From positions 1 through 30,994 of the IMG/VR virus record IMGVR_UViG_3300016482_000018: a stretch of DNA of 30,994 nt; one strand, 5' to 3'. The DNA is from a virus. Taxonomy: Duplodnaviria; Caudoviricetes. Below are positions 6,921 through 30,994 of this stretch, one piece after another; position 1 is the first letter of the stretch; every line of letters starts with the position of its first letter. Made by a program: the position numbers and the translations under genes. The notes below the pieces were generated by a model, which was given only the letters and a program-made list of their open reading frames with translations, made no database searches and had not been told where the DNA came from.

Positions 6921-7225
6921 TTCACCTCGATGACTTTAAGGTTGGGGTTGTTTTGTGTTGCTGCAGCAATAAGCACTTGCTGAGATACTTCGTTGGCTTT
7001 GACCATCTCGTTGCGGAACGACTCGACCGCCGCACCGGTTTGGCGTTGCTGTTGGCTGTTCTCGATTAGAAGCATAGGCATCCACGCCATAGCGCAGCCA
7101 TGCTCGTCAACGTCCGCCCCTGTGTTTGGGTTGGTTCCACGGATAGCCATAAACCACGCACAGTCAAATTGCTTGCATGGTTCAAAACCGTTTAATGGGC
7201 AGTTCGGTTTAGCCTCAATCTTCAT
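6917..7225 (-). CDS. Cys-containing hypothetical protein of the tail module
   Basis: CPL...C...CAWF...GCAMAW, then coiled coil; translationally coupled to neighbours. Confidence 0.6.
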   Translation of the reverse strand: MKIEAKPNCPLNGFEPCKQFDCAWFMAIRGTNPNTGADVDEHGCAMAWMPMLLIENSQQQRQTGAAVESFRNEMVKANEVSQQVLIAAATQNNPNLKVIEVK

Positions 7226-13215: not shown

Positions 13216-13229
13216 AGCCTACCTACAGA

Positions 13230-13253
13230 TAAGAAGTGGGGGCCGAAGCCCCC
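13230..13253 (-). terminator. Probable intrinsic terminator after the capsid genes
   Basis: Minus strand GGGGGC-TTCG-GCCCCC (cUUCGg tetraloop) followed by ACTTCTT. Confidence 0.7.
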
Positions 13254-13262
13254 GGGTATTAC

Positions 13263-13373
13263 TTAAACGGCTTCCAGAGCTGCGACACGAGCTTCCAGAG
13301 CTGCAAATTCAGCAGCGAGGTAGTCGGCCAGAACTGCGGGAACGCCCAGAGAGACGAGAGTTGCTGCGGACAT
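13263..13373 (-). CDS. 36-aa protein directly after major capsid gene (not in the ORF track)
   Basis: AGGAG RBS; MSAATLVSLGVPAVLADYLAAEFAALEARVAALEAV*; bracketed by two hairpins. Confidence 0.75.
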   Translation of the reverse strand: MSAATLVSLGVPAVLADYLAAEFAALEARVAALEAV

Positions 13374-13394
13374 GGTTTTCTCCTAGGTCAAAGG

Positions 13395-13416
13395 TGGGAG
13401 GGGTTGCCCCCTCCCA
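13395..13416 (-). terminator. Stable hairpin after major capsid stop (weak terminator or mRNA stabiliser)
   Basis: TGGGAGGGG-GCAA-CCCCTCCCA, 9-bp stem, GNRA loop, poor U-tract (CCTTTG). Confidence 0.55.
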
Positions 13417-13421
13417 GTTGG

Positions 13422-14438: not shown

Positions 14439-14508
14439 GTCGTTTCTCCTATGAAAATGTCTAGGTACTACTTAAACAACCGCTACCATTACGCGCAGAC
14501 TTAGGAGA

Positions 14509-15474: not shown

Positions 15475-15487
15475 TTCAATCTCCTTC

Positions 15488-15594
15488 GCTCCGACTACGC
15501 CACGTGCTCCGACTTTACGGGCTGCACTGCGCGCTTACGGTCTGCTACTGTTGTGTTTAGGTTGTTTGCCTTCCGCTCCGACTTAACGGTCTGC
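15488..15594 (-). repeat. Direct repeats in the scaffold 5' leader
   Basis: 20-mer GCTCCGACTTWACGGKCTGC at 15506-15525 and 15575-15594 (18/20 identical); partial copies at 15488-15496 and 15534-15545. Confidence 0.8.
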
Positions 15595-15596
15595 GG

Positions 15597-15824
15597 TCAG
15601 CGTTTAAGCTTGGTGATCAGTGCTTCCGCACTTTCGATGTACCCAAGGAGTTCCTTGAGCTTCCCGGCTTCACCTTGTAGCCGGTAAATCTTATCGGGGT
15701 CCGCCACCTGAGCCATCATCTCCAGAGTCTCGTGCCTTTCGGCTCTCAAGTACTCGAGGAGTGGTGCAAACTCCGGTGATCGGAGTCGCGCAAAGCAATG
15801 CGCAATGCGCTCGTCAATTCTCAC
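15597..15824 (-). CDS. Small helical protein between portal and scaffold (Bbp19-like position)
   Basis: IYRLQGEA motif; synteny. Confidence 0.6.
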   Translation of the reverse strand: MRIDERIAHCFARLRSPEFAPLLEYLRAERHETLEMMAQVADPDKIYRLQGEAGKLKELLGYIESAEALITKLKR

Positions 15825-16012
15825 TTGCAGAGGCCGTCGGTTTTGGCCACGTCAACGGCGAATTCCTTGCCACCACGCGAACCTGCGAACTCATTCAGGG
15901 ACGGTGCGCCGCCGACGCCAGTAGCGCCACCTTTGCACATACCATCGGTTTTAGCCGATTCCTGAGCGACTTCTTTGCCGCCACGCTTCTCTTCATTAAA
16001 GATGTTAGCCAT
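15821..16012 (-). CDS. 63-aa protein with internal duplication
   Basis: AGGAGG RBS; RGGKEVAQESAKTDGMCK / RGGKEFAVDVAKTDGLCK. Confidence 0.7.
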   Translation of the reverse strand: MANIFNEEKRGGKEVAQESAKTDGMCKGGATGVGGAPSLNEFAGSRGGKEFAVDVAKTDGLCK

Positions 16013-16044
16013 TTTTGGCCTCCTAAATCAAGGGGTTAAGTAGC

Positions 16045-16072
16045 TTTGTACCATATTCTAGTACATTGTCAA
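16045..16072 (-). promoter_or_regulatory. Putative sigma70 promoter for scaffold/capsid genes
   Basis: TTGACA-16 bp-TACAAA with extended -10 TG; the -35 contains the portal TGA stop. Confidence 0.6.
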
Positions 16073-18207: not shown

Positions 18208-18263
18208 AGGAAGTACCCCGGCGAGGTGAATTTTCACCTAAATATCATGGGCTTATTATACAG

Positions 18264-19664
18264 TCAAGTCCAAGCATAGGAAACCTTTTGTACAGGTTGA
18301 GCCCTTTTCTGCAACATATCGCCCGTTACGTTACCGTCTGCGTGCAGACAAGCATATTGAAAAGCATCAGCAATGTGGCTGTATGAGTTCTTTTCTGGCT
18401 TGTCGTCGACTTCCCCGGTGTTCTTTATCTTGTAACGATAGCCACCGCGCAGCGCGTTAATTAGCGGCTTGCACGAAGGATCAATCAGCATCCCTGCCTT
18501 ACCATCCACCATACGCGTGAGTAGCTTATCCACTGCGTTAATACGGGCCACAACGCTGTTCGACTTGGCTGGAATGACACGGAAGCCCTCTTCTCGCAGG
18601 ATATCGAACACGCTTCGCTCGTCGGTCTGTGCTCGCTGCTGCCCTGCCGGGTCTCCGATAACGACCATACTCATGCCCGGGAATCGGTTAGCCAGCAAGG
18701 GTTTCAGCTTTTCACGACAGAAGCGTAGCGTCCCCATGCCTTCACTGGTTAGTGCAGCGTAGGTGAGGAACCGGCCTTGTGGGTCAATCTGCGAAATCGT
18801 CGCCGCGGGCGTCAGCCCGAAGTCCATCCCAATGATCAGGGGGTGCGTGGACAGCTTGATGTGGTTGAGCTCGTGCTTGGCAACATGGATCTCGGAGTCG
18901 AATGCCCGGAACACCGGCTGACCGGACAGACTCTTACCGAACTTGGCGTTGATGTAGACGTCAACCCAGTCCTCGGACTTACCTTCAGCGAGGTTCTCGT
19001 AGTAGCCGTCAGGCAGGAACTCGATCCAGTCGGCGTCAGGAGACAAGCCGCTGGGCTGGAAGAAGCAGTTCGCGTTCGCCGGGGGTTCGGACAAGTACTG
19101 TTCCCAAAACGTATCCATGTCCGGCGGGTTGGTCATACCCCAAATGTGGGCGTTGGAGCTGCCATCATCTTTGACACACCCCACGCCATTATCCAGCTTA
19201 GAAGGGTAACGACCCAGACGGCCTTGCAGAGCATTGAAGATATCGGGGTTAATCTCTCGAAATTCATCAAGGATTCCAAACGACGCTTGTAAAGATAGAA
19301 GACGACGCACGTCATTAGAATCATCCAGACCGCGAAAAAGAATTTCACACTCAACATCATCGAACCTCAGAATGAATTTGTACTCCGACTTCAGGTATGA
19401 CCCCGCCTGCCCGTCCGGATACCAGCGCAACACGTCAGGGATCGACGTATCTCGCAACTGCTCTCGGGTGTTACGCACCCAGATCGCTCGGCTCCGACGA
19501 ATACCATCCCGACACGGGGCCATCTGCGCCGCGTGGTACGCAATCTTCATGATCCCAGCCGTGGTCTTTGTAGAACCAACCGGGCCTACGATCAGACTGA
19601 CGAACGAGTCGCTGAGGAGAAATCCTTCAGCGCTGGGTGGTGGGGTGTAACTCAGTCCGCTCAT
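18264..19664 (-). CDS. terL: Terminase large subunit
   Basis: Walker A variant GPVGSTKT, Walker B GILDE, motif III MTNP, nuclease IIGMDFG and HIADAFQY. Confidence 0.95.
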   Translation of the reverse strand: MSGLSYTPPPSAEGFLLSDSFVSLIVGPVGSTKTTAGIMKIAYHAAQMAPCRDGIRRSRAIWVRNTREQLRDTSIPDVLRWYPDGQAGSYLKSEYKFILRFDDVECEILFRGLDDSNDVRRLLSLQASFGILDEFREINPDIFNALQGRLGRYPSKLDNGVGCVKDDGSSNAHIWGMTNPPDMDTFWEQYLSEPPANANCFFQPSGLSPDADWIEFLPDGYYENLAEGKSEDWVDVYINAKFGKSLSGQPVFRAFDSEIHVAKHELNHIKLSTHPLIIGMDFGLTPAATISQIDPQGRFLTYAALTSEGMGTLRFCREKLKPLLANRFPGMSMVVIGDPAGQQRAQTDERSVFDILREEGFRVIPAKSNSVVARINAVDKLLTRMVDGKAGMLIDPSCKPLINALRGGYRYKIKNTGEVDDKPEKNSYSHIADAFQYACLHADGNVTGDMLQKRAQPVQKVSYAWT

Positions 19665-19912
19665 TTGTCATCAATCTCGATTAGCTTTGGGATGACCATC
19701 TCGTCGGTGATCAAGATTGGCCACAGGGGTTCGTACTCCGGGTTGATCGCTGTGATAGCCCAGACGCACGTGCCGTAGATGAACTCGCTCAAACTGATCA
19801 ACCAGCCGGTGAACGGAATCCGCGGCTCGATCATCGGGCAGTCGCTGTCAACGTCTTTCAGGTAGATCGGGCACAGCCCGAACCAGCCTTTGTGTGTGAA
19901 TGCAATTTTCAT
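19661..19912 (-). CDS. Hypothetical protein
   Basis: 83 aa, ATGA-coupled on both sides. Confidence 0.6.
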   Translation of the reverse strand: MKIAFTHKGWFGLCPIYLKDVDSDCPMIEPRIPFTGWLISLSEFIYGTCVWAITAINPEYEPLWPILITDEMVIPKLIEIDDK

Positions 19913-20334
19913 TTTTCTGTCTTTCCACGCAGCCGGTCGTACTCGTAGAGCAGCGTCTGCAAAATGCTTTGGATGGAATACGCCTCGAACTCATCGCTCG
20001 GGGCCTTCTCACCGATGTGCTTGCGTATTTCCTGCCAGATATGAACGGCCTCATGACAGATCAACGACGCCACTTCTGCGTAGCTGTGCTTGTCCATGTC
20101 TCGAATACACACAACAGCCGCTACAGAACAGTCTTCCCGGTTCTCGAAGAAATGAACGGTCGCGTGGCTGTGCCACGTCAGCATGAATGCGGGCCACCCG
20201 TTCTTCGGTACTTTCAACTCTTTGAGCTTCTGCTTGAACTGCTCTTCTGTGATGCACAGCGCCAAGTGATACGGACTCTGCACCAACACACGGTTGAGCC
20301 AGTTACTTTTCTTCTGCGTCTTGGATTTCGCCAT
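19909..20334 (-). CDS. HExxH zinc-metallopeptidase-like protein
   Basis: LICHEAVHIW...SDEFEAY (HExxH plus distal Glu). Confidence 0.6.
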   Translation of the reverse strand: MAKSKTQKKSNWLNRVLVQSPYHLALCITEEQFKQKLKELKVPKNGWPAFMLTWHSHATVHFFENREDCSVAAVVCIRDMDKHSYAEVASLICHEAVHIWQEIRKHIGEKAPSDEFEAYSIQSILQTLLYEYDRLRGKTEK

Positions 20335-20782
20335 GTTCAATGACCCTCGGCTCCGGTTTCGGGCCGTTGAAGTTAATACTGATGGAGAACCCCGGGCCAG
20401 CAGCGACCTGCGCCGTCTGTTTGGGCTCCATATCTGCGAGTTTGGCCCCGAGTTTCACGAACTCGAGCTTCTGCATGAGGGTGGCGTCGTTACTCCGGGC
20501 GATTTTGTACGCCTCGTCGAACACGTCCTCGGTCAACAGCTTGGCTTTGAGCCTGAACGTAAACCCGTTCTGCTCGAGCTCTGCCCGCTGTTTGGCAACG
20601 GCATCTTGGAACGGCTTCCACGCTTTTAACGCTTTCCACCGCTCCCCGACGATACCGTGGCGGTACGCAAGGTCATCTGCGTCTTCGAGCCCCGTTGCGA
20701 TCGCAAGCACGAGCTCCGGCGGGACGTCCACCGGAGTCGGTACGTCGATAGGCGCGATATCTACATCAGAGCGAGTGTCCAC
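20303..20782 (-). CDS. Putative terminase small subunit
   Basis: Helical protein ending GFSISINF beta-strand; upstream of terL; GTG start. Confidence 0.55.
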   Translation of the reverse strand: MDTRSDVDIAPIDVPTPVDVPPELVLAIATGLEDADDLAYRHGIVGERWKALKAWKPFQDAVAKQRAELEQNGFTFRLKAKLLTEDVFDEAYKIARSNDATLMQKLEFVKLGAKLADMEPKQTAQVAAGPGFSISINFNGPKPEPRVIEHGEIQDAEEK

Positions 20783-20924
20783 GTGGAGCCAACCCTTCCT
20801 CGAGGATCTGCCGGATGACCTCGCTCACCGACACCTGCCGTGCTTTGGCCTTTTCCTGCAACTGCGTCCAGAGCTTCTCTGGCAGGAAAAAGTTACGGCG
20901 CTTCATCACCGACGTTTGGGTCAT
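20766..20924 (-). CDS. Ribbon-helix-helix (CopG/Arc-like) DNA-binding protein (not in the ORF track)
   Basis: MTQTSVMKRRNFFLPEKLWTQLQEKAKARQVSVSEVIRQILEEGLAPRGHSL*; RHH pattern (beta strand, LP, helix, S-x-SEVIR); ATGA overlap with upstream gene. Confidence 0.8.
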   Translation of the reverse strand: MTQTSVMKRRNFFLPEKLWTQLQEKAKARQVSVSEVIRQILEEGLAPRGHSL

Positions 20925-21232
20925 CGCTTGGCACCTTTCTTCGCCGGAACAGACTTGGCTTTAGCTGCTCCAGTGGGGTTCTTTCGTGCGCCCTCCGATC
21001 GTGCCTCTTTGTTGGCGTACTGAGCTGGGCTCATCTTGCCGGACTTGATCTGATTGGCGTTTTTACGCACTTGAGCCACGGGCTTTTTCTCACCTTCCTT
21101 CTTCTGCTCGGCTTTTTCGCCTGCAACGTACTGGGATTTCGAGATCTGGCCGGTTTTCAGAGCGGTTGCTTCCTTCTTTTCCTCGGCTTTGGTGTCTTTG
21201 CCCGTGAAGAGCGACTTGAGCTTGTTCAACAT
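20921..21232 (-). CDS. Highly basic Lys/Ala-rich protein (internal start in frame with the HNH ORF)
   Basis: GAGG RBS before ATG 21232 (MLNKLKSLFTGKDTKAEEKKE...); internal duplication KTGQISKSQY / KSGKMSPAQY; own promoter upstream. Confidence 0.7.
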   Translation of the reverse strand: MLNKLKSLFTGKDTKAEEKKEATALKTGQISKSQYVAGEKAEQKKEGEKKPVAQVRKNANQIKSGKMSPAQYANKEARSEGARKNPTGAAKAKSVPAKKGAKR

Positions 21233-21583
21233 AGAATTTCCTCGTGTGTAAGAACTAGGTATGTGTATTGTAGGTGTATCTGCATGTTTGTCAACTCGTT
21301 CATTCCAATGATGAATTCGATGGCAGTTGGCGCAAAGTACTACACACTTGGCTAATTCTTCCAAAATACGGCTTTTTACCCCGTTTTTCAGCAGATCTCG
21401 CATCTTTCTGTTGTCTGGACGACGAACTACATGGTGAAAGTCGAGTGTTGCTGGGTGATTTTGTCCACATTGGATGCAGGAAAGCGTCTTTTTGTGCTCA
21501 CGGAACCATTCTTGGGTCTCCCGGCGGGTTTGAGCAGTCTTGGCAATGACGCGAGCCTTGTTTCTTTCGTACCACGATGACAT
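20921..21583 (-). CDS. HNH endonuclease (reads in frame into the downstream basic protein)
   Basis: CIQCG...LDFHH...KCVVLCANCHRIHH zinc-binding HNH signature. Confidence 0.85.
   Translation of the reverse strand: MSSWYERNKARVIAKTAQTRRETQEWFREHKKTLSCIQCGQNHPATLDFHHVVRRPDNRKMRDLLKNGVKSRILEELAKCVVLCANCHRIHHWNERVDKHADTPTIHIPSSYTRGNSMLNKLKSLFTGKDTKAEEKKEATALKTGQISKSQYVAGEKAEQKKEGEKKPVAQVRKNANQIKSGKMSPAQYANKEARSEGARKNPTGAAKAKSVPAKKGAKR
21267..21294 (-). promoter_or_regulatory. Putative sigma70 late-operon promoter
   Basis: TTGACA-16 bp-TACAAT about 35 bp upstream of ATG 21232. Confidence 0.7.
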
Positions 21584-21750
21584 AAGCGGTTACTCAATAC
21601 GAGCCCTCCTGTACGGATGATGGCAGCATACTACGGCATTTTCCCGATAATTCAAGCACCTAGAGACCTGTTAAATCGGTTTGAAACAGTTGTGAGTAGG
21701 ATGTATGTATATATGAAAAAACTAGGGGCGCGTTATGAGGAACACCTAAG

Positions 21751-21800
21751 CCCCCACCCCGCCCCCTCATCCGTTTGGCCCTCCCCCCCACCCTACCCCC
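21751..21800. other. C-run tract at the divergence point of the two arms (possible genome end/packaging region)
   Basis: Seven C-runs of 3-7 nt in 50 bp; role is inference. Confidence 0.4.
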
Positions 21801-21918
21801 TAAAGCACCGTGTTAGCTATAAGTGTGGATAGCCTTGCCTCATAACACCGGGGCGATGCGTAAGACGGCGATGCGATAAGCACCGTTGCAGCTAAAGGTG
21901 AAGCACAACGTAATACCT

Positions 21919-21930
21919 TGCTCTTTAACA
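21919..21930 (+). promoter_or_regulatory. boxA antitermination element
   Basis: TGCTCTTTAACA, identical to the rrn boxA consensus, in the leader of the first plus-strand gene. Confidence 0.8.
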
Positions 21931-22214
21931 TAGTTAAGTCAGTCAGCCATGTGCAACCGATATAGCCTCGGGCCGCGAGTCGCAAGACGATGCGCCAGTC
22001 GCTCGGAGTGCCAGACCTAGAGGGTGCGCCCAATGGGTTTGATCTGTAAAGCCGCCATGCACATGATTCGGACGGACGATGACAATGGACACGAATACCG
22101 CTGACTGTGGGCAAACCTAATGGATCGGATCTGTTAGGCCATAGCACACAGTCAGCACCTTCAAGGGTTCTCAATCCCGAGTGCCTTTGATCGTGCTAAC
22201 TAACGGAGATTCAA

Positions 22215-22799
22215 ATGGCTATCAGCAAAAAGTTTGTCGAGCAAGTATTGGCCTTGTCGCAACGTGGCGAAAAGCTGGCCGCTTCGGTACATGGTTTGTG
22301 TGTGGACGCGATGCGTTCGGCCTACTCAAACGCAGACAACGAGAAGGCTCAATTCCTCCTCGATAACATCCCGCAGTATATGCGTGCCCCTGTAGCACGC
22401 TGGTTCCGGCGCATGGGCATTGAGTCTATCGCCCCGACAGTAGATCACAAGACTTACAAGGTCACGGGTGTAGTTGACCAGAAGCAACAAGCCAAAGCCT
22501 TTGGCAAGTGCGACAATACGCCGGTTTTCGAGACTGAAATCCGCGAGAAGAAGGAAGGCAAGAAGCGCGAGCTGAAGGGTACGCCTGATATGCGTGCCGT
22601 AGATTATGTGGCGAAGCTGGTCACTCGCCTGCAAGATACCGATTATTCGGCTGCTGCAATCATCAACGAGAAATGGTCAACCGCACACCATCAGTCGTGC
22701 CTGTTCACGGCACAAGGTGAGAAAGTGTATTTGGATGACGCCGAGCTGGAGCTGGTGCAGAACCTTCTGACCCAACGCCGGATGCTGAAAGCAGCCTGA
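22215..22799 (+). CDS. First early gene, hypothetical protein
   Basis: 194 aa, GGAG RBS, followed by terminator. Confidence 0.8.
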   Translation: MAISKKFVEQVLALSQRGEKLAASVHGLCVDAMRSAYSNADNEKAQFLLDNIPQYMRAPVARWFRRMGIESIAPTVDHKTYKVTGVVDQKQQAKAFGKCDNTPVFETEIREKKEGKKRELKGTPDMRAVDYVAKLVTRLQDTDYSAAAIINEKWSTAHHQSCLFTAQGEKVYLDDAELELVQNLLTQRRMLKAA

Positions 22800-22804
22800 C
22801 CCAC

Positions 22805-22831
22805 GGAGGGGCATCGCCCCTCCTCTTTTTT
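22805..22831 (+). terminator. Intrinsic terminator
   Basis: GGAGGGGC-ATC-GCCCCTCC then TCTTTTTT. Confidence 0.85.
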
Positions 22832-22881
22832 CGCGCACCTATCATAGTTATGTCGAACGGAGCCCACCAAGGAGTCACACC

Positions 22882-23109
22882 ATGCAGCTTGGTAGCGTCT
22901 TGAGCATCGAGCTCATCCAACAGCTTAAATCCATTACACGCAAACCGAAGGTAATCCGCTTGACCACGAAAGGTGTGTACAAGTCATGTGTGTATGGTTC
23001 AGAGGGTCGAAGGATTCCAGGTGGTCTACGTCCACGAGGTTTGAGTCAATCCAACTTGCTCCCTGCCCTCGAATCTGCCCAAGTGTTTGGGGTCAAGACT
23101 AGGATCTAA
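22882..23109 (+). CDS. Hypothetical basic protein
   Basis: AAGGAG RBS, 75 aa. Confidence 0.55.
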   Translation: MQLGSVLSIELIQQLKSITRKPKVIRLTTKGVYKSCVYGSEGRRIPGGLRPRGLSQSNLLPALESAQVFGVKTRI

Positions 23110-23174
23110 CCCCCAGTTGCCTAAAAAATGAGCGTCATATTTGAAAATGGCTCAACCACGCGGGTTTGCAGGGA

Positions 23175-23528
23175 GGGATTGGACAGTGTGTATGTGGATA
23201 ACTTGTTGGCAAATTCGCTGGCAAATTCAAAATGTCCAATAAAAACAGTCTCTTACACGATCATAATAGACAATATGTTATTTAGTCAATGAAAAAGAGG
23301 CTTCGCGGGAATAGAAAACTGCTTGACGATGGTCATGTGGGCACAATCTCCTAACACATTCAAAAAGTCGGGGGGTCATTTTGCTTCTGGCGACTAAATA
23401 GCATATCCCAACAAATCAAAGACTTAGCTCTCGCTCTTATAAATTGTCTAAATGGCTAGATCCGCCACCAGTATGAAATTCCCAAATTTGCCACTATGAA
23501 TTTGCCGGGCGAGTTGTCTAATTGTCTT
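23175..23528. other. Origin-like non-coding region (DnaA box, IHF site, inverted repeats)
   Basis: TGTGGATAA 23193-23201; AATCAAAGACTTA 23414-23426; GGCAAATT repeats in both orientations; 15-bp inverted repeat. Confidence 0.5.
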
Positions 23529-23555
23529 GACTTCTGAGTGAGTAGGATGTATGCT
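23527..23555 (+). promoter_or_regulatory. Putative sigma70 early promoter
   Basis: TTGACT-17 bp-TATGCT upstream of AAGGAG and ATG 23582. Confidence 0.7.
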
Positions 23556-23581
23556 GTATGTACTAACACAAGGAGATCAAT

Positions 23582-23785
23582 ATGATCGGGCAAAAATTCG
23601 GCAGGTTGACTGTCACCGAGTTCTTCCAACGTAAAAACGGTCGGGATAAGTACGTATGTTTATGCGACTGTGGTAAGGAAGCCATCGTTGAGGCTCGTAA
23701 CTTGAAAGGTGGGTACACCAAATCATGTGGATGCCTGCGTAGTAACAACTGGAAGAAGCATAGAGGTGAGCGCCATGACGGGTAG
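23582..23785 (+). CDS. Stand-alone HNH-associated N-terminal Cys domain
   Basis: GQKFGRLTV...VCLCDCG...TKSCGC, same domain as the N-terminus of 29365..29973; no nuclease domain. Confidence 0.7.
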   Translation: MIGQKFGRLTVTEFFQRKNGRDKYVCLCDCGKEAIVEARNLKGGYTKSCGCLRSNNWKKHRGERHDG

Positions 23786-23990
23786 CGTCAATCGCGTGGG
23801 GAAACTGCGTGTGGTTGAACCCATGCCCTGCTCACATCAAAACCTTGCCCGTCTATTGTGCGTATGTGACTGTGGCAAAGAGCTCGTGCTCTACAGAAAA
23901 GCATTCGAGTCAGGGCGTATCACATCGTGTGGATGTGCTCGACATAAGGAGAAGCCAAATGCAAGGCCAAACTATGCAGGTCAAGATTAA
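23775..23990 (+). CDS. Second stand-alone HNH-associated N-terminal Cys domain
   Basis: GAGGT RBS, ATG 23775; GKLRVV...LCVCDCG...ITSCGC. Confidence 0.6.
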   Translation: MTGSVNRVGKLRVVEPMPCSHQNLARLLCVCDCGKELVLYRKAFESGRITSCGCARHKEKPNARPNYAGQD

Positions 23991-24150
23991 GAGTGTGTAT
24001 GGGCGGGACAGTATCTATCCCGTATCGAAGAACGCCCAGATCTTTTGCACCATGTTAGGGCAGAACACACTCACGCTGGACAACATCAAGCACATCAAAC
24101 TTCTGGGTTACGAGATCGAAGTGGTCAGTGACCAACCAACGACATTATGA
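23959..24150 (+). CDS. Hypothetical early protein
   Basis: AAGGAG RBS, ATG 23959; VKIKSVYGRDSIYPVS...KLLGYEIEV. Confidence 0.7.
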   Translation: MQGQTMQVKIKSVYGRDSIYPVSKNAQIFCTMLGQNTLTLDNIKHIKLLGYEIEVVSDQPTTL

Positions 24151-24458
24151 TGAGCGAAGCAACAAACCTCCCCGAGCTGCTTGCCTACCAAGGTAAGGTG
24201 TACCAATTAGTGCATGACTTGGACAAATCACCCGACGAAGCTGGATGTAGGAACTGTGCACTTAAGCGTAAGGACGATGATGCACGTTATATATGTATCC
24301 GGTTGGCTCGAGAGCAATTCCCGGTTTCTGACATAAACGATTACTACGAGTGTTGGGGCAGGTCGGGGTATGTGGAAGCACCAGACCTATCATTGGACGA
24401 CGTGACCGCGCTGCAAGTGTTGCACCGACTGGAAGGGCTGGACAAGCCCGACGATTAA
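24147..24458 (+). CDS. Four-Cys early protein, tag VLHRLEG
   Basis: YQGKVY, CRNC, two more Cys, C-terminal tag. Confidence 0.75.
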   Translation: MMSEATNLPELLAYQGKVYQLVHDLDKSPDEAGCRNCALKRKDDDARYICIRLAREQFPVSDINDYYECWGRSGYVEAPDLSLDDVTALQVLHRLEGLDKPDD

Positions 24459-24485
24459 CAAGCATAGACGCACAGGAGATCCAAT

Positions 24486-24761
24486 ATGGGCGTACCTGAC
24501 CGATTAACTGTAATGAAGATCAACGGGCAGTGGCTAATCCAAGAGTGGCAGGAGACAGGGTTGATCTGTGCAAACTGTGCCTTCCTCCATAGCAGCAATC
24601 CAGACCGCACCCTTTCCTGTGGAGATGAGGCAACGACCTCACTGTTCACCGAGCAGAATCCGACAGACGATAGTTCGTTCTGTACCAAGAAGATCTGGAA
24701 ACGAGCCACCGAGGAAGAAGCCCTTGTGCATCAAGTAGTTAACCGCATGGAGGGTGTATGA
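24486..24761 (+). CDS. Four-Cys early protein, tag VVNRMEG
   Basis: AGGAG RBS; INGQWL, CANC, two more Cys. Confidence 0.75.
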   Translation: MGVPDRLTVMKINGQWLIQEWQETGLICANCAFLHSSNPDRTLSCGDEATTSLFTEQNPTDDSSFCTKKIWKRATEEEALVHQVVNRMEGV

Positions 24762-25009
24762 ATCTGGCCAAGGAGTGTATCAGGAGCACCATATATAAAG
24801 GAGTAACGTACTACCAGATGCCGGAGCTGGTTACGCAGGACTGTGAAGGTTGTAGTGTGTATGCCGATCCTGCGGTGGGGGAAAGCGCATGTAGCTATTT
24901 ACATAAGCTGACAAACAGCTGCACGGAAGGTATCTGGATAACTGCCAAGGGTAAAGAAGAGTACTGCACTCGACTCATGGTTATTAAACTCGAAGGAGAA
25001 ACGACATGA
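24758..25009 (+). CDS. Four-Cys early protein, tag MVIKLEG
   Basis: YKGVTY, CEGC, further Cys; ATGA coupled. Confidence 0.75.
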   Translation: MNLAKECIRSTIYKGVTYYQMPELVTQDCEGCSVYADPAVGESACSYLHKLTNSCTEGIWITAKGKEEYCTRLMVIKLEGETT

Positions 25010-25227
25010 CACATACACACCCATTCAACATCGCAAACCCGAACTTCAACTACATCCCTGCCAACAAGACGGATGTGACCCAGACATGGCGTAAAGCTGG
25101 ATGGGTTCCGCCCACTACGATCAAGGGGTACTTCGCCAAACGCCGCAAGCAACTCATGGAGGAGATGCAGTATGAGGAATCCAACACTGCGACCCAGTAC
25201 GACCAGACAGCAGACCAGCCGTTCTAA
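25006..25227 (+). CDS. Hypothetical early protein
   Basis: FNYIPANKTDVTQTWRKAGWVPP; ATGA coupled. Confidence 0.7.
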   Translation: MTHTHPFNIANPNFNYIPANKTDVTQTWRKAGWVPPTTIKGYFAKRRKQLMEEMQYEESNTATQYDQTADQPF

Positions 25228-25242
25228 ACAGGAGAGTACGCC

Positions 25243-25326
25243 ATGGATACGATCGCAGCGTGTCTTGTCGCTGCTGAAGCAGTTGTGTTCTTACTTCTCG
25301 TGGCGCAAGTCTGGTTCAACCGATAG
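25243..25326 (+). CDS. 27-aa single-pass membrane peptide (not in the ORF track)
   Basis: AGGAG RBS; MDTIAACLVAAEAVVFLLLVAQVWFNR*. Confidence 0.6.
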   Translation: MDTIAACLVAAEAVVFLLLVAQVWFNR

Positions 25327-25336
25327 AGGCTAGGGT

Positions 25337-25582
25337 ATGAAGACTCTCACCATTAACGGGTTGCCATACCTCGTCATGAAGGAACTGCGACATGGTAAAT
25401 GCAGTGGGTGTGACCTCGAGCATCTGAAAAATGGAAAAACGTGTTCGGATACTCGGTACAGGAACGATGTACCTGCGGCAGACAGATGTGCCACTCGTAA
25501 GTGTGTGTACATCGAACGCAGCGTCGAAGGCGTGCGTAGATACCGTGTAAACCGGGTGCTTGCCCGGATGGAACATCTGTAA
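25337..25582 (+). CDS. Four-Cys early protein, tag VLARMEH
   Basis: INGLPY, CSGC, further Cys. Confidence 0.75.
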   Translation: MKTLTINGLPYLVMKELRHGKCSGCDLEHLKNGKTCSDTRYRNDVPAADRCATRKCVYIERSVEGVRRYRVNRVLARMEHL

Positions 25583-25618
25583 CACCTATCATCAACAACA
25601 CCAAGGAGAATCACCACT

Positions 25619-25858
25619 ATGAACTACGTATACGAAGCAATTCAATTCGTCCTGCTGGTTGTCATCATGACCACACTGTTTATGACCGGCGTAAAGTGGA
25701 CAGAATACCCGTGGCATCTGGCTGTGATCTGTGTGGCTCTCGTGCTGTACAACATCGCTGCCTATAAACAAGGCAACGAGCGCGGGGCAGAAATCGCCCG
25801 TAATGCATGTACAACGGCAATAGCCGAGATGTTCGACAACATCAACAAGAAGTTATGA
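25619..25858 (+). CDS. Two-helix membrane protein
   Basis: AAGGAG RBS; two hydrophobic segments. Confidence 0.7.
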   Translation: MNYVYEAIQFVLLVVIMTTLFMTGVKWTEYPWHLAVICVALVLYNIAAYKQGNERGAEIARNACTTAIAEMFDNINKKL

Positions 25859-26094
25859 CCACCGAGACAGTCGAGATCTTCGGGATTGAATACTTACGGG
25901 TTCCTTACATACAACGTGGATGGTGTACAGGCTGCGTCAATGCTGGCAACACACTCACGAATCGTTTCTGTGCCGAAGTAAAGCGAGTACATACGCATGG
26001 CTGTTTAGGAACCATCTTCATAGAGAACACACCCAAGGCGTTCGAGGAGTACGCCACCAAAAAGGTATTGGCTCGACTGGAGGGAGAAGAATGA
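25855..26094 (+). CDS. Four-Cys early protein, tag VLARLEG
   Basis: Start ATG 25855 (ATGA overlap); IFGIEY, CTGC, two more Cys. Confidence 0.75.
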   Translation: MTTETVEIFGIEYLRVPYIQRGWCTGCVNAGNTLTNRFCAEVKRVHTHGCLGTIFIENTPKAFEEYATKKVLARLEGEE

Positions 26095-26327
26095 GATGGG
26101 AGTATGTCAACGAGGATCGACTGCACTGGGGTCAATGGAAGCTGTTTGTTGAGGACAAGCTGATTGGCTCGGTAATTATCCGGCTAGGCGGTCGTGAGTT
26201 TGTAACCAATCTGTACGTCAACCGAGCGACCGGAGACCTCGTGCAGTGGAGGTTTGATTCTCTCGAGGAGGCCAAGGAGCAGATAGAAATTCAGGCCGTG
26301 ATTGCACGGCTGGAGGGTAGGTTATGA
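26091..26327 (+). CDS. Cys-free early protein, tag VIARLEG
   Basis: Start ATG 26091 (ATGA overlap); MRWEYVNED...FDSLEEAKEQIE. Confidence 0.75.
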   Translation: MRWEYVNEDRLHWGQWKLFVEDKLIGSVIIRLGGREFVTNLYVNRATGDLVQWRFDSLEEAKEQIEIQAVIARLEGRL

Positions 26328-26548
26328 CACAGATAACAATCGGTGACGTGGTGCTCGAGCAGTATCCCGTTAATGGAAAGAGAACTTGTGGTCGGGTGCT
26401 TCCCACCATTGACTGCTTCTTCTTAAACCAGATCCAGCACGAGTGTCCGAAGGAGGATAGCAAACTGTTATGCGAGGGTGGCGGGGGCAGGACGTTCTTT
26501 ATCCCAGTCACCGATCTAGTGACTCTACGGATGGAGGGTGAGTTATGA
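26324..26548 (+). CDS. Four-Cys early protein (variant spacing), tag LVTLRMEG
   Basis: ITIGDVVL, four Cys, FFIP; ATGA coupled. Confidence 0.7.
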   Translation: MTQITIGDVVLEQYPVNGKRTCGRVLPTIDCFFLNQIQHECPKEDSKLLCEGGGGRTFFIPVTDLVTLRMEGEL

Positions 26549-26596
26549 AGTGGTATGAACTTATGGTATGATAAGTAACACATACTAGGAGGTGTT

Positions 26597-27058
26597 ATGC
26601 TTACAGACAAAGAGTTACATGAGTTGTTTGAATACCGAGATGGCCAGTTATTCTGGCGAAAAGATATGTTAGCAAACAAAGTGGCGGGTAAGCCAGCAGG
26701 TAGCCCAAACTCAAAAGGCTATCTTATTACGGGAATCAATAGGAAAACGTACTTAAACCACCGCATCATATTTCTTATGCACCACGGGTATTTACCTAAA
26801 CTGATAGACCATATCGACCGCGATCGCACAAACAATCGAATTGAAAACTTGCGTTCTGCCGACCGAAGTATGAACGCGCTTAACTCAAAAGACCGGGTTT
26901 GCAAATCAGGGCATAGGCACGTGTACTGGAGCGAGAAAGACCAGCGTTGGTATGTGATGCGCCGCGTAAACGGTAGAGCCACATACTATGGGTATTTCAA
27001 AGACAAAAATGAAGCAATTAAAAAAGCGGCCGAGGTACGTAAATGTGCAATGCAATAG
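26597..27058 (+). CDS. HNH homing endonuclease with AP2-like C-terminal domain
   Basis: HRIIF...IDHIDRDRTNNRIENLR; SGHRHVYW...YYGYFKD...A; AGGAGG RBS; AT-rich. Confidence 0.9.
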   Translation: MLTDKELHELFEYRDGQLFWRKDMLANKVAGKPAGSPNSKGYLITGINRKTYLNHRIIFLMHHGYLPKLIDHIDRDRTNNRIENLRSADRSMNALNSKDRVCKSGHRHVYWSEKDQRWYVMRRVNGRATYYGYFKDKNEAIKKAAEVRKCAMQ

Positions 27059-27123
27059 AGATCTTGTTCTGGGGTGTGTTTGCTTTGTTCTGCCTGAACC
27101 GAGCTGCACAACTGCTGGCATGA
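27043..27123 (+). CDS. 26-aa hydrophobic peptide (not in the ORF track)
   Basis: GAGGT RBS; MCNAIEILFWGVFALFCLNRAAQLLA*; ATGA overlap with 27120. Confidence 0.5.
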   Translation: MCNAIEILFWGVFALFCLNRAAQLLA

Positions 27124-27374
27124 AGGGGTTGCACACAAGGCTTGTGTCGAAGGCGGGGAAGAAGTGGCAGGTAGTTGATCCGTCACTAAACAAGCCGGGG
27201 AAACACCTAATCGTCGGGCACATCGAGGAGCGAGAACCTAACATGTATCGAGCGTGGCTATGGGATGAGTATCCGATGAACAGCAGCATGACATACCCAA
27301 GTCTCAACCATGCACACCACGAACTGAATGAGCAGTATGTGGCCAAGCTAATGATTAAGAGGTTGAGTAAATGA
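27120..27374 (+). CDS. Cys-free early protein, probable paralogue of 26091..26327, degenerate tag MIKRLSK
   Basis: Start ATG 27120; LIVGHI...YPSLNHAHHEL aligns by eye with LIGSVI...FDSLEEAKEQI. Confidence 0.65.
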   Translation: MKGLHTRLVSKAGKKWQVVDPSLNKPGKHLIVGHIEEREPNMYRAWLWDEYPMNSSMTYPSLNHAHHELNEQYVAKLMIKRLSK

Positions 27375-27478
27375 AACAGCTATCACTGTTCCCCAAAAAT
27401 CAAATCGCACCCAGAGAACGAGCGCGTGTGTATATCAAAGCACTGCTGGCGCTATTGAAAGAAGGGAGGAAGAAATGA
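27371..27478 (+). CDS. 35-aa protein with N-terminal QLSLF beta-clamp-binding motif (not in the ORF track)
   Basis: GAGG RBS; ATGA overlaps at both ends; MKQLSLFPKNQIAPRERARVYIKALLALLKEGRKK*. Confidence 0.75.
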   Translation: MKQLSLFPKNQIAPRERARVYIKALLALLKEGRKK

Positions 27479-27765
27479 CAATCAAACTAGAACAAGCCGA
27501 GCAAGCAGAGCAGGAGCCGGTGGCGTATATGTTTAAGGTTAAAAGAACGCTCCCATCCTCAACTCCACTCGATGTATTTGCAGCTATTGAATACCACCCA
27601 TTACCACATGAGGACATTATTTCTAAAGAACCGCTCTACACGCACCCTGTCCGTACAAAAAACCTGACGGATGGAGAACTAACGGCAATATGGGAGCGCA
27701 ACGCTGGCGATTGGCTGGTTTGTTTTCGTGCCATCATTGCCGCTGATAGGGAGAAGAACAGATGA
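27475..27765 (+). CDS. Hypothetical protein with EPVA...PLY motif
   Basis: QEPVAY...PLYTHP...LTD pattern common in proteobacterial phage accessory genes; GGAGG RBS. Confidence 0.7.
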   Translation: MTIKLEQAEQAEQEPVAYMFKVKRTLPSSTPLDVFAAIEYHPLPHEDIISKEPLYTHPVRTKNLTDGELTAIWERNAGDWLVCFRAIIAADREKNR

Positions 27766-28118
27766 AACGTAACCTAACTAACCACGAGTGCGTGATCTAC
27801 GCCGCACGGCTGCAAGAGTTCAGCAACAAAGGCGGTTCGATCTTCGGTCGTAACAACAAGTGGTATGACGAAAGCAATCCGGATGGTGTCTCGGTGTCGT
27901 TTACTGTGTATTCCTACGGAACGCACTTCCCGATGTATGTGTACGACTATCAGACTCAACGCTGGTATGGCAACAGCAGTAAGTACAGCCGCACTACATC
28001 CAAACATCAGTCACTCATGCGCCCATCGGTAGTTGAGGATTGGTACGACACCAATACCCTATCGTCTATCGCATTCCGCGGCATAACCAGAGTAGTAGAA
28101 AGGAGGCTCGAAGCTTGA
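27762..28118 (+). CDS. Aromatic-rich early protein, tag VERRLEA
   Basis: [14 protein letters not shown]...[11 protein letters not shown]; ATGA coupled. Confidence 0.75.
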
Positions 28119-28318
28119 CCCACCCCACTGACAAACACATCCGATACAACCGCAAGGCCAGAGATGGCATGACACTGGACGAGATCGCCCAGTATTTCGG
28201 GCTTACACGAGAGCGTGTACGTCAGATCGAAGCAAAAGCACTACGTAAGGTGCGCACAAAACTCCAAGCCCGCGGGCTTACATTCAAAGATTTACTTAAC
28301 TCACTTCATAAGGACTAA
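28115..28318 (+). CDS. Stand-alone sigma70 region-4 helix-turn-helix protein
   Basis: TTG start after AGGAGG; [26 protein letters not shown] closely matches RpoD region 4.2 ([26 protein letters not shown]). Confidence 0.85.
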
Positions 28319-28321
28319 ACC

Positions 28322-29308
28322 ATGAAATATTCTGACCTCAAACTGTCGATCACTGAACAATTCAAGACCACGAACCAGATCGGTTTCCTGCTGCTCGGCC
28401 AGCCGGGTGGTGGTAAGTCTGCTCTGGCCCGTGATATTGGCCGTGAGCTGGGCTTCGATCGTGTTGTCGAATTCAACGCTTCGCTGCGTGACCCTGTAGA
28501 TCTGCTCGGTACTCCGAACATCGACGGTGAGACTACTAAATGGCGTAAGCCCGATGACCTCGCTGCCCTCGAGACTGGTCGTAACCTGCTGGTGATCGAG
28601 GAGCTGACGGACTGTAGCACCCCTATGCAGAACGCATGCTGCGGCCTGATCTATGACCGCAAGGTGGGTGAGCTTCACCTATCACCCGAGACGTACATCA
28701 TCGCCTCCGGCAACCGGACTGAAGACAAATCTGGCGCATACCGCCTCTCGACCAAGCTGGCCAACCGTATGCGTATCTTCGACTTCGATGTGACCATCGA
28801 CGACTGGGCTGAATGGGCTCTGGCCTCCGGCATTGATCACGTGCTGGTTCAGTTCCTGCGCTTCAAGCCTGACCTCTTGACTGCGTTTGACCCCAACGCT
28901 CGTGTATCCCCCACGCCTCGTGCATGGGAGCGTGTCAACTGTATCCCGACTGACCTGCCATCGACTGTGTTCATGGCCAACGTTGCTGGTGATGTGGGTG
29001 ATGGTGCGGCTGCTGCGTACACGGCGTTCCGTAAGATCTACGAATCGCTGCCTGATCCGGACGAGATCATGATGAACCCGGCCAAAGCCAAGATCCCCGA
29101 GAAGATGGACGTGCTGTATGCCCTGACCGGCGCGATTGCACACCGTATCAACGAGGACAACTTCGACCGTGCCATCGAGTTCATCAACCGTATGCCGCCG
29201 GAGTTCTCGGTCATGTGTGTGCAGGATGCCATGAAATTGTGCCCAGCCATTAAAAAGACCAAGGCATTTGTGGCTTGGGCGGTCAAAAATAGTAAAGTTG
29301 TAATCTAA
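28322..29308 (+). CDS. MoxR-like / AAA_5 AAA+ ATPase
   Basis: Walker A GQPGGGKS, DPVDLLG, Walker B LLVIEE, sensor I ASGN, arginine finger LANR, sensor II TPRAW. Confidence 0.9.
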   Translation: MKYSDLKLSITEQFKTTNQIGFLLLGQPGGGKSALARDIGRELGFDRVVEFNASLRDPVDLLGTPNIDGETTKWRKPDDLAALETGRNLLVIEELTDCSTPMQNACCGLIYDRKVGELHLSPETYIIASGNRTEDKSGAYRLSTKLANRMRIFDFDVTIDDWAEWALASGIDHVLVQFLRFKPDLLTAFDPNARVSPTPRAWERVNCIPTDLPSTVFMANVAGDVGDGAAAAYTAFRKIYESLPDPDEIMMNPAKAKIPEKMDVLYALTGAIAHRINEDNFDRAIEFINRMPPEFSVMCVQDAMKLCPAIKKTKAFVAWAVKNSKVVI

Positions 29309-29310
29309 AC

Positions 29311-29338
29311 TTGACTTGCGCCTTTCAAGTTGTATACT
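29311..29338 (+). promoter_or_regulatory. Putative sigma70 promoter upstream of HNH gene
   Basis: TTGACT-16 bp-TATACT; inverted repeat AACTTGA/TCAAGTT (29308-29314/29325-29331) overlaps the -35. Confidence 0.65.
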
Positions 29339-29364
29339 ATTTCTAATACAACACAGGAGGTTAT

Positions 29365-29973
29365 ATGAAAAAACGTATCGACTTGACTGGCGCAGTCTTT
29401 GATAGGCTTACAGTTATTGAGTATGCCGGTAATGACAAGTATAAAAATGCCCAATGGGTATGCCGTTGTGAATGCGGAACCGAGAAAGTAATAAGTGGGG
29501 CATCCCTTCGTTCTGGACATACTCTTAGTTGTGGGTGCTTACATAAAGAGAAAGCATCAGATTGGGCAGTAAAAAACAAAACAACGCATGGCATGCGTAA
29601 GTCTAGAACATATAGCGTTTGGACAAACATGCGTACTCGTTGCACTAACCCAAAATACAAGCAATACAAAGACTATGGTGGTCGCGGTATAACTGTATGT
29701 GACCGATGGCTAGAATCGTTTGAAAACTTTTTAGCCGATATGGGGGAAGCCCCAGAAGATAAGACGTTAGATCGCATCGACAACAACGGTAACTATGAGC
29801 CGGGTAACTGTCGGTGGGCTACCGCACACGAGCAAAGGATGAATCGTTCTGACACCCTCATGTTTGAGGGTAAGACTGTATATGACTGGGCAAAGGAGCT
29901 TGATATGAATTACTACACCTTGTACTCCCGGCTGAAACGCTTCGGTACTTTGTTTCCGGAGCATCTAAAGTAG
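29365..29973 (+). CDS. HNH-type homing endonuclease
   Basis: WVCRCECG...SCGC, YGGRGITVCDRW, TLDRIDNNGNYEPGNCRWAT; AGGAGG RBS; AT-rich. Confidence 0.9.
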   Translation: MKKRIDLTGAVFDRLTVIEYAGNDKYKNAQWVCRCECGTEKVISGASLRSGHTLSCGCLHKEKASDWAVKNKTTHGMRKSRTYSVWTNMRTRCTNPKYKQYKDYGGRGITVCDRWLESFENFLADMGEAPEDKTLDRIDNNGNYEPGNCRWATAHEQRMNRSDTLMFEGKTVYDWAKELDMNYYTLYSRLKRFGTLFPEHLK

Positions 29974-29982
29974 GAGATGTGT

Positions 29983-30201
29983 ATGGGGAGTTCATTAGGA
30001 GATCAGGTAGCTGAACTCGAAAGCGACTATGCAGATTTACTAGCAGAGCTCGGCAAGTTAGAAACAGCACATGAAACTGTGCTTAATGATCTGGAAGAGG
30101 CCACGCAGGAAATACGCGACCTATCATCAGAGCTCGAATGGTATCGCTCAACGTTCCCCGAAGGGTCTGATGCGTATGCCTGTATGCGGAGGATGGAATG
30201 A
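29983..30201 (+). CDS. Acidic coiled-coil protein ending CMRRME
   Basis: AGGAG RBS favours ATG 29983; heptad pattern. Confidence 0.7.
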   Translation: MGSSLGDQVAELESDYADLLAELGKLETAHETVLNDLEEATQEIRDLSSELEWYRSTFPEGSDAYACMRRME

Positions 30202-30467
30202 TTACCGGATATAAACCACCACCGTGGGCTAATGGGTACAGTGCTCGTGACTATTCGGCTCAACAACGCGCCGCACGAGATAGTGTTGACATGCTCAAGC
30301 ATGAGCTGCGGCAACAGCAAAAATACATCCAAGAGTTGCAGTCAGAACTCGCGCATCTTCGAGGAGCTTTAGATAAGCACCGCAAGGTGTACAAATGGAT
30401 GACGGACAACGGATATGACGATGTGTTGACCGCGGCTGAAGTAGCACTTGCATTGGAAACACGATGA
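30198..30467 (+). CDS. Coiled-coil hypothetical protein ending VALALETR
   Basis: ATGA coupled; GGAGG RBS. Confidence 0.7.
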   Translation: MITGYKPPPWANGYSARDYSAQQRAARDSVDMLKHELRQQQKYIQELQSELAHLRGALDKHRKVYKWMTDNGYDDVLTAAEVALALETR

Positions 30468-30709
30468 AAAAAACATATACACAAGACGGGGTTCTATACC
30501 ACCGATTACCGGAGCATGGATTCAAGATGTGCCGAGGATGTGATTTCTCATTCTGGGTTGATGGCGTACACGATTGCCGCAACAGAAAAGAGAACAACCT
30601 TGACGACAAGACCTGTGGCGAAGATAGCGTCATCTACGTCAGATCAAAGCGGCAGCACAAAGTAGATGCAGTGCTTGCCAAACTCGAAGATTGGGAGGGA
30701 GAACGATGA
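30464..30709 (+). CDS. Four-Cys early protein, tag VLAKLED
   Basis: QDGVLY, CRGC, two more Cys, VIYV. Confidence 0.75.
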   Translation: MKKTYTQDGVLYHRLPEHGFKMCRGCDFSFWVDGVHDCRNRKENNLDDKTCGEDSVIYVRSKRQHKVDAVLAKLEDWEGER

Positions 30710-30994
30710 AGATTGAATTAGAAATTCCTGACGAGGACATAAACAAATATGTCAAGACAGCGATCAAGCAACAGCTAGATAGACGATTAGCAACATATTG
30801 TCGGAATGTGGTTGCCTCATACTGGACTGAACAGCAAATAGCCGCGCAGATCAAAGATGAGGTTAGTAAGAGCATCGCCCCGCAAGTGGAGAAAGCCTTA
30901 GGCGATTGGGAAAAGATTCGCCCAAAGATTATGGACGCAGCAGAGAAAGCTATTGTTAACCGCACTAGTCGCATGATCAAGAAACTGGAGGAAG
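30706..30994 (+). CDS. Helical hypothetical protein (partial, runs off the right edge)
   Basis: ATGA overlap; MKIELEIPDEDINKYV...RMIKKLEE at the window edge. Confidence 0.7.
   Translation, partial: MKIELEIPDEDINKYVKTAIKQQLDRRLATYCRNVVASYWTEQQIAAQIKDEVSKSIAPQVEKALGDWEKIRPKIMDAAEKAIVNRTSRMIKKLEE

Follow-up and report, generated by a model that had tools for sequence, protein, structure and literature searches.

A shared C-terminal helix motif on unrelated early proteins of a podovirus clade, probably a docking tag

Introduction

MoxR ATPases are paired with a metallopeptidase-vWA protein in group 2.2 jumbo phages, and a role of this pair in virion assembly has been proposed (accessible part of PMC7824862). 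In MoxR systems, the vWA domains serve to capture substrate peptides (accessible part of PMC7159879). Here we analyse the virus record IMGVR_UViG_3300016482_000018 (Caudoviricetes), which was used over its entire length of 30,994 nucleotides (nt) and is hereafter called the window. Its early arm encodes a MoxR-like AAA+ ATPase as well as many small proteins that end in a common short sequence, [VLMI]xx[RK][LM]EG, hereafter the tag. The pairs known from jumbo phages and from N4 (gp24/gp25; PHROG 1297 plus 1314; AAA_5 plus DUF2201_N/DUF2201) consist of the same two proteins as those found in the tag-bearing clade. A preliminary description of the window, made from its letters only, had proposed that the tag is a modular docking helix read by one common partner, with the ATPase as a candidate; we followed this proposal into related phages.

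Results

The tag ends many early proteins of the window

The structural arm of the window lies on the minus strand, while the early arm runs on the plus strand from 22215 into the contig end. In all six reading frames the pattern [VLMI]xx[RK][LM]EG has six matches, all of them on the plus-strand early arm and 1–6 residues before a stop codon (genes starting at 24147, 24486, 24758, 25855, 26091, and 26324). Without the final Gly the pattern ends 9 of the 25 complete early-arm genes, compared with chance means of 0.067 in whole-protein shuffles and 0.155 in shuffles of the last 20 residues, with a maximum of 3 in 20,000. A 12-column profile, whose training set includes the tags of the window, scores at least 10 bits in 11 of these 25 genes. 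The motif is longer than first described, A(-6)-x-x-V(-3)-x-x-[RK](0)-[LM](+1)-E(+2), which mostly follows a T/D-D/E start.

All protein ends listed in the preliminary description are present at their genes. Among its weaker cases, the protein starting at 30198 holds up by score; the protein at 29983 is weak itself, and 7 of its 12 listed homologues reach at least 9.6 bits. For the protein at 27762, 8 of 11 homologues score at least 10 bits. The open reading frame (ORF) at 30706 is cut by the contig end, so that its MIKKLEE is at most a possible terminal tag, and a search for its relatives found none. Since seven of the ten strong cases belong, as paralogues or likely paralogues, to one family with four cysteines (the four-Cys family; 26324 is an atypical member), the window holds about four independent protein bodies rather than ten.

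The tag is confined to the early genes of one clade

To follow the tag outside the window, 55 loci were fetched with an alignment of the ATPase; their genes were called with a purpose-made script and include some false ORFs. After dereplication at 70% and with the window left out of the count, the 651 early proteins of these relatives match the pattern at 38 of 5,859 terminal positions versus 10 of 28,202 internal positions, an 18-fold enrichment. The late-arm control, 268 proteins from nine whole genomes plus the window, gave no match in 2,412 terminal positions, in line with the earlier remark that the minus arm is free of the tag apart from generic coiled-coil ends.

A profile trained on 78 tags was further applied to 834 proteins less than 70% identical to the training loci. 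At 12 bits it finds the tag at the end of 65 of 756 small early proteins and in none of 642 at positions 15–23 from the end. The same profile matches 1 of 176 late proteins, an Ala-rich and chance-like match. At 12 bits it matches none of the 160 small genes of the five sister genomes, and a set of 325 from eight cultured phages gives 1 match. The held-out matches do not represent independent origins, because they belong to the same families as the training set. Thus, the tag is restricted to the early genes of one podovirus clade. A genome carries 1 to 14 tags: the low-count genomes keep a core of a 217-residue Nmad5-like protein and a 100-residue family, and the high counts are due to four-Cys and beta-family genes arrayed in tandem.

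Among 237 tags, V occupies position -3 in 189. Glu is found at +2 in 108 and Asp in 25, and in about half of the tags A, S, D or T replaces Glu. The motif is followed by zero to eight variable, often charged residues (in 20, 45, 57, 37, 39, 19, 12, 4, and 4 tags, respectively).

The tagged bodies are unrelated to each other

In the relatives, at least seven families carry the tag: the four-Cys, 26091-type, 27762-type, Nmad5-like, 'MRLI', 'NGY', and coiled-coil families. After the tag had been stripped, HHalign gave a probability of at most 1.0% between the profiles of these families. Two coiled-coil profile matches of 58% and 14% were discarded, as that set was contaminated by four-Cys and beta-family members; a clean set of nine coiled-coil sequences gave at most 0.48%.

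The four cysteines of the four-Cys family are invariant over 46 sequences, and among 37 profile hits, 5 are four-Cys-like domains that lack the tag. In the predicted structure of the member at 25855 (predicted local distance difference test 87.1), the tag forms the end of a helix. This model has no match among solved folds by VIA-align (best Z 3.1), and a sequence search of the PDB found none. No tagged protein of the window matches Pfam above the cut-off, and the matches to PHROG are weak (27762, E 1e-6). The tagged 217-residue family is Nmad5-like, as 12 of its 21 members match Nmad5 (best E 6.4e-6). A reading of Nmad5 as an anti-defence protein was dropped, since Nmad5 is linked to Tmn sensing (accessible part of PMC11846954).

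The tagged families show tandem expansion and a turnover of whole genes. The entire tagged genes 24758 and 25337 are skipped in contigs of two other studies (runs X2 and X3). Four-Cys genes in tandem arrays are gained and lost whole by close strains.

Overlapping ribosome-binding sites explain only part of the tag

The codons for L/M-E-G can also form the ribosome-binding site (RBS) of the next, coupled gene, a caveat raised in the preliminary description. The tag would then be a by-product of overlapping RBSs and of ordinary C-terminal structural helices, with no shared function. Indeed, of 47 tagged genes, 30 have L and/or E covered by the Shine-Dalgarno sequence of the next gene and another 4 have x-R covered by it; 39 of the 47 have an L/M codon with G as its last base; and in the four-Cys model the tag closes a helix of a folded domain. 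Several results speak against this explanation. Specifically, 182 of the 268 late genes show the same coupling and not one of them carries a tag, which is the coupled-gene control proposed at the outset. Among terminal GGAG-Glu sites that follow L/M in early genes, 28 of 57 have R/K in front, and 25 of those 28 also have V/I/L/M; at the same kind of site elsewhere, R/K occurs in 0 of 10 late cases and in 13 of 80 internal cases, and only 1 of these 13 has V/I/L/M as well. Glu is encoded by GAA in 17 of the 47 tagged genes, Val uses all four codons, and the matches fall 47 in frame 0 with 0 and 0 in the two other frames. Six of the 47 tagged genes are uncoupled; in the window, 24147 and 25337 are so as first described (gaps of 27 and 36 nt), and 26324 likewise (48 nt). 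Finally, the tag recurs on unrelated folds and inside polymerases.

Orthologues point the same way. Across 69 orthologue pairs, the V, R/K, and L/M residues change in 6–9% versus 24% for the body; the first of these figures is lowered by the choice of both members of each pair on the basis of their tag score. The codons of these residues vary synonymously in 25–35% versus 35% for the body. This agrees with the original claim that conservation is at the protein level. Glu changes in 22% of the pairs, like ordinary body residues. From the RBS overlap and the codon data, the selected core is therefore A-x-x-V-x-x-[RK]-[LM], and E-G is partly owed to the RBS: the caveat stands in part for E-G and leaves V and R unexplained. 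The by-product explanation is largely refuted for V and R, and as an account of the whole tag we judge it very improbable.

Overall, the tag is real: a motif at the level of the protein that extends across the clade and is carried by unrelated early proteins and by some polymerases.

Tag-like insertions at the polymerase thumb and a parallel motif

We compared 73 family-A DNA polymerases (dereplicated at 85% identity; 45,109 residues). Only two strict tag matches occur in them, IEQRLEG (L225) and VARKLEG (L294), and both lie inside insertions of 18–22 residues at the end of the thumb helix, a position assigned by alignment to Klenow. Such a thumb-tip insertion is present in 8 of 29 tag-clade polymerases (L225, L294, L241, L247, L248, L306, L322, and L325), and the nearest relatives of L225 are without it. 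The thumb tip scores at least 8 bits in 4 of 29 tag-clade polymerases versus 0 of 43 others. The other 21 of the 29 mostly have a weak L-M-x-R-I-D in a thumb helix of ordinary length; sequences of this type are found in 20/22 versus 0/41, in one clade and with a pattern relaxed after the fact. Another polymerase stretch, V-x-A-x-V-x-A-R-L-G (scoring up to 12.4), was rejected as a tag because tagged and untagged lineages have it alike. The tag matches at the polymerase thumb tip are new here.

The cultured Rhizobium etli phage RHph_TM3_14A has no VxxRLE and carries its own motif of the AMLLG (AxAMLLG) type instead. This motif occurs in 15 of its 51 early-arm coding sequences (11 N-terminal and 3 C-terminal, all on small proteins, and 1 in the polymerase), compared with a mean of 0.2 and a maximum of 3 in shuffles, the pattern having been set after the fact. 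The polymerase copy is located at the same thumb site, and no other of the 73 polymerases has a match of this type. The AMLLG genes lie at 11651–27726 of the phage (L056), where the unannotated ORFs 13088 and 24438 have it too, as does a minus-strand match at 7026. The use of this polymerase site in both lineages is the best hint of a portable handle that is read from the side.

The internal polymerase copies and the variable trailing residues also disfavour two other readings, namely a degron at the free C-terminus and a virion-loading signal. A degron for a host ATP-dependent protease, making early proteins short-lived, would suit a terminal element confined to early genes; C-terminal degrons of the ssrA/Prc type have fixed C-terminal residues, and the tag has none, its last zero to eight residues being variable and often charged. 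Of all the alternatives we regard this one as the least probable. Loading into the virion for injection is modelled on the capsid-targeting sequence of phage T4, a terminal 10-residue sequence on divergent, non-essential, anti-defence internal proteins (accessible part of PMC9026906), and it would suit the way the tag tracks the portal type: 12 of the 13 tagged records have this portal, and none of the 5 untagged ones. It fits poorly with internal copies in a polymerase of 630–650 residues and with a tag on the 217-residue Nmad5-like protein, no cleavage-site pattern is evident, and the late genes are untagged. Virion loading is hence quite improbable.

The docking partner and the MoxR-vWA module

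We consider it very probable that the tag is a docking tag for one protein partner. The 12-residue motif, a predicted amphipathic helix, would dock unrelated early proteins onto this single partner, and what is read would be the side of the helix (A-6, V-3, R/K0, and L/M+1), not the free C-terminus. The modular docking helix first proposed thus survives as a protein-level terminal helix on unrelated bodies; the partner named with it does not stand equally firm. Alternatively, the tagged proteins may associate with each other in mixed bundles or a condensate without a dedicated reader. The motif is rich in Ala/Val, and as an amphipathic helix that is hydrophobic at -7/-6, -3, and +1 it would be suited to this; the encapsulation peptides of bacterial microcompartments resemble such a helix. 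Self-association is nevertheless improbable, since the strict R/K at one position and the preference for V at -3 look like a fitted pocket, and several genomes keep only one or two tagged genes.

The phage's own MoxR ATPase together with a zincin-vWA protein is our first, tentative candidate for the partner. The ATPase of the window matches Pfam AAA_5 (E 2.7e-7) and PHROG 1297 (E 5.6e-70). The vWA gene absent from the window exists in the relatives, which encode a DUF3150-like protein and a DUF2201 zincin-vWA protein downstream of the ATPase; the label DUF3150-like is a lead only, taken from an Atlas cluster in which 11% of the members carry DUF3150. The zincin-vWA protein matches DUF2201_N (E 8e-43) and DUF2201 (E 1e-20) and is found in 533 records. 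Its model contains a vWA fold (Z 11.8, root-mean-square deviation 2.5, 130 residues aligned). Residues H66, E67, and H70, D249, S251, and S253, T309, and D333 are invariant in 28 sequences, so that the HExxH motif and the metal-ion-dependent adhesion site (MIDAS) are intact. On a tree of the vWA proteins (FastTree, support values not considered), the tagged loci lie on one branch, with RHph_TM3_14A and L162 adjoining. A further point in favour comes from Rollin and KPP25, whose polymerases are related: the genome parts covered contain neither tag nor pair. We rank this partner first because such vWA domains capture peptides and because both tag-bearing lineages have their own vWA protein. The DUF3150-like protein (L030:4780–5655, and orthologues) itself ends in a tag-like I-A-x-K/Q-M helix that stays below the profile threshold.

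Several points weigh against the MoxR-vWA module as the reader. The window ends before any vWA gene. The ATPase, the DUF3150-like protein, and the zincin-vWA protein are present in 13 of 13 tagged genomes, yet all three are also present in 5 of 5 untagged sister genomes. Five N4-like phages have the pair as well, and the tag profile matches 1 of 176 there. Co-occurrence therefore does not single out the reader. Within the tag-clade vWA branch, six loci are without a tag at 10 bits, and common descent confounds the association of the tag with this branch: the portal and the Nmad5-like genes are tracked by the tag equally well. The Sinorhizobium phage phiM6 has a different shared tail and no MoxR or vWA match in the 40 kb covered, and shared tails therefore need no such pair. 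The motif of RHph_TM3_14A has no fixed acidic residue. The related suggestion that the tag Glu completes the MIDAS has been weakened, as Glu is poorly kept in tags and in orthologues and its codon often doubles as part of an RBS. A predicted complex of the zincin-vWA protein with a four-Cys tagged protein, with Mg and Zn, scored 0.00 twice and was counted neither way.

The partner may instead be another hub, either a protein of the host or a component of the replisome, for example a processivity factor. The polymerase would contact this hub via the thumb tip, and the small proteins would reach the replication site or compete for the hub. Tag-like insertions do sit at the thumb tip, at what we take to be the same position as the thioredoxin-binding insertion of T7 polymerase. 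A distinct motif in the Rhizobium phage is what a different host would demand, and the sister phages have the MoxR pair without the tag. Furthermore, 9 of the 13 tagged genomes, and none of the 5 untagged ones, encode an untagged protein of 83 residues (G001 36611–36862; region L059:8698–8985). In contrast, 21 of the 29 tag-clade polymerases have no insertion and only the weak L-M-x-R-I-D, and the host-demand argument is tentative. Such a hub is somewhat unlikely and ranks close behind the MoxR-vWA module. The 83-residue protein, whose gene adjoins a 993-residue gene that appears to be primase-like, is a possible candidate for the reader.

If the MoxR-vWA module is the partner, the targets bound would differ from one variable body to the next and would probably be host proteins, and through the constant helix they would be handed to an ATP-driven remodeller or protease in the manner of an adaptor library, with the polymerase and the Nmad5-like protein as possible house clients. 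More broadly, the clade may practise programmable protein handling: a lineage-specific helix (VxxRLE in this clade, AMLLG in RHph_TM3_14A) would be grafted onto any protein end or loop, and a growing library of small binders, whether zinc-finger-like, beta-rich, or coiled-coil, would thereby become adaptors. These would bring defence proteins of the host to a MoxR-vWA-zinc-protease, which through the same helix would also act on the phage polymerase. This full scheme is speculative, and we hold it to be unlikely in all its parts.

Setting of the window and other shared tails

The portal of the window is nearest to that of Rhizobium phage RHph_TM3_14A (40%), followed by HMO-2011-type podoviruses (about 28%). 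The sequencing run that best holds the window is a freshwater metagenome, and no RNA datasets are listed among the runs that hold it. A host search for the window phage gave six matches in genome bins with mixed labels and no usable host. The tagged genes and the ATPase are listed in Table 1.

Table 1. Tagged genes, variant endings, and the candidate reader gene on the early arm of the window.
Feature	Position	Strand	Remarks
Four-Cys family protein, 103 aa	24147..24458	+	VLHRLEG at 24417-24437; uncoupled; 18.3 bits
Four-Cys family protein, 91 aa	24486..24761	+	VVNRMEG at 24735-24755; 17.2 bits
Four-Cys family protein, 83 aa	24758..25009	+	MVIKLEG at 24977-24997; 10.5 bits
Four-Cys family protein, 81 aa	25337..25582	+	VLARMEH at 25556-25576; uncoupled; 14.1 bits
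Four-Cys family protein, 79 aa	25855..26094	+	VLARLEG at 26065-26085; end of predicted helix 60-76
Cys-free family, Trp-rich N-terminus, F-x-T-x-x-E-A-K helix start, 78 aa	26091..26327	+	VIARLEG at 26298-26318
Atypical Cys-containing protein, 74 aa	26324..26548	+	VTLRMEG at 26519-26539; uncoupled; 14.8 bits
Second member of the 26091 family, 84 aa	27120..27374	+	variant MIKRLSK; 17.9 bits
Aromatic-rich family, 118 aa, weak PHROG 7247	27762..28118	+	VERRLEA at 28095-28115
MoxR-like AAA+ ATPase (Pfam AAA_5, PHROG 1297)	28322..29308	+	candidate reader together with the zincin-vWA protein of relatives
Predicted coiled-coil protein, 72 aa	29983..30201	+	degenerate CMRRME; 5.1 bits
Predicted coiled-coil protein, 89 aa	30198..30467	+	variant VALALET; 11.7 bits, outside training set
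Four-Cys family protein, 81 aa	30464..30709	+	VLAKLED at 30671-30691; 15.5 bits
ORF ending at contig end with MIKKLEE	30706..30994	+	cut ORF; possible terminal tag

The window also carries other genes. HNH homing-endonuclease genes and fragments are located at 23582–23990, 26597–27058, and 29365–29973, and the gene at 26597 is skipped in contigs of run X3. A stand-alone mini-protein like sigma-70 region 4 (28169–28318; Pfam E 1e-11) directly precedes the ATPase, and several relatives have it too. A 35-residue ORF at 27371–27478 starts with MKQLSLF, which presumably resembles a beta-clamp-binding motif. Short pieces of the gene at 27475–27765 match many unrelated contigs at very high depth, which suggests modules common to many phages.

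Shared endings of other kinds were seen in three further phages. In phiM6 (L097), about 12 small genes on the minus strand at about 25600–30300 end in Y-[KR]-[VI]-D-Q-E-P-x-E-[DE]-E-E-x-L, and these genes adjoin an operon of amidoligase, ATP-grasp, and glutamine-amidotransferase genes. Three genes of PA26 (L092; 5569, 6834, and 7451) end in [VLI]-P-[AK]-[ED]-[IL]-x-A-x-x-L. Six Cys-rich paralogues of FSL SP-058 (L094; 3833–8222) have a common N-terminal helix.

Discussion

Most small early phage genes are without known function. With a common handle, dozens of orphan families fall into one pathway, and a direct question is posed, namely what binds the helix. If the MoxR/zincin-vWA module were the reader, a module that hundreds of phages carry would gain a function, where the accessible literature so far offers only a proposed role, and the system would be a phage counterpart of adaptor-programmed proteolysis. 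The cultured phage RHph_TM3_14A, whose host Rhizobium etli is harmless, makes the question testable with its parallel motif. No description of the tag was found in the openly accessible literature searched; the MoxR-vWA pair of phages may be touched on in the supplements of PMC7824862.

Several known systems share features with the one outlined here. The sliding-clamp-binding tails of T4 gp43, gp55, and gp33 (QL[SD]LF) are a motif common to a polymerase and other proteins. In these tails, and in the thioredoxin insertion of T7, the likeness, which in the tag clade extends to some polymerases only, lies in a polymerase and unrelated small proteins sharing one motif for one hub. The clamp tails differ in that their sequence is unrelated, while the tag is predicted to be helical and sits on accessory proteins that are variable and number in the dozens; these genomes yielded no clamp gene. 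Adaptor libraries of the F-box and SOCS-box type combine a variable target-binding body with a constant docking module and are expanded in copy number. They belong to the eukaryotic ubiquitin machinery, with no homology to the tagged proteins, for which target binding is only a proposal by analogy.

The MoxR-vWA pair of jumbo and N4 phages shares its two components with the tag clade, and the accessible part of PMC7824862 mentions no tagged clients for it; five N4-like and five sister phages with the pair are likewise untagged. The internal IPI, IPII, and IPIII proteins of T4 are alike in having a single short peptide at the terminus of small accessory proteins that are divergent and change fast (accessible part of PMC9026906, which is also our source for what follows on T4). 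Their capsid-targeting sequence is N-terminal, is cleaved by gp21, and directs packaging, whereas the tag is C-terminal or internal and has no fixed end. In the FxSxx-COOH vWA-MoxR ternary modules, as far as the accessible part of PMC7159879 describes them, a zincin peptidase likewise stands beside small, rapidly diverging proteins whose C-terminal peptide is conserved. In those modules the precursor is encoded by a single bacterial gene, its C-terminal motif is fixed, and the partners are radical-SAM proteins, whereas here many folded families carry the tag and its end is variable.

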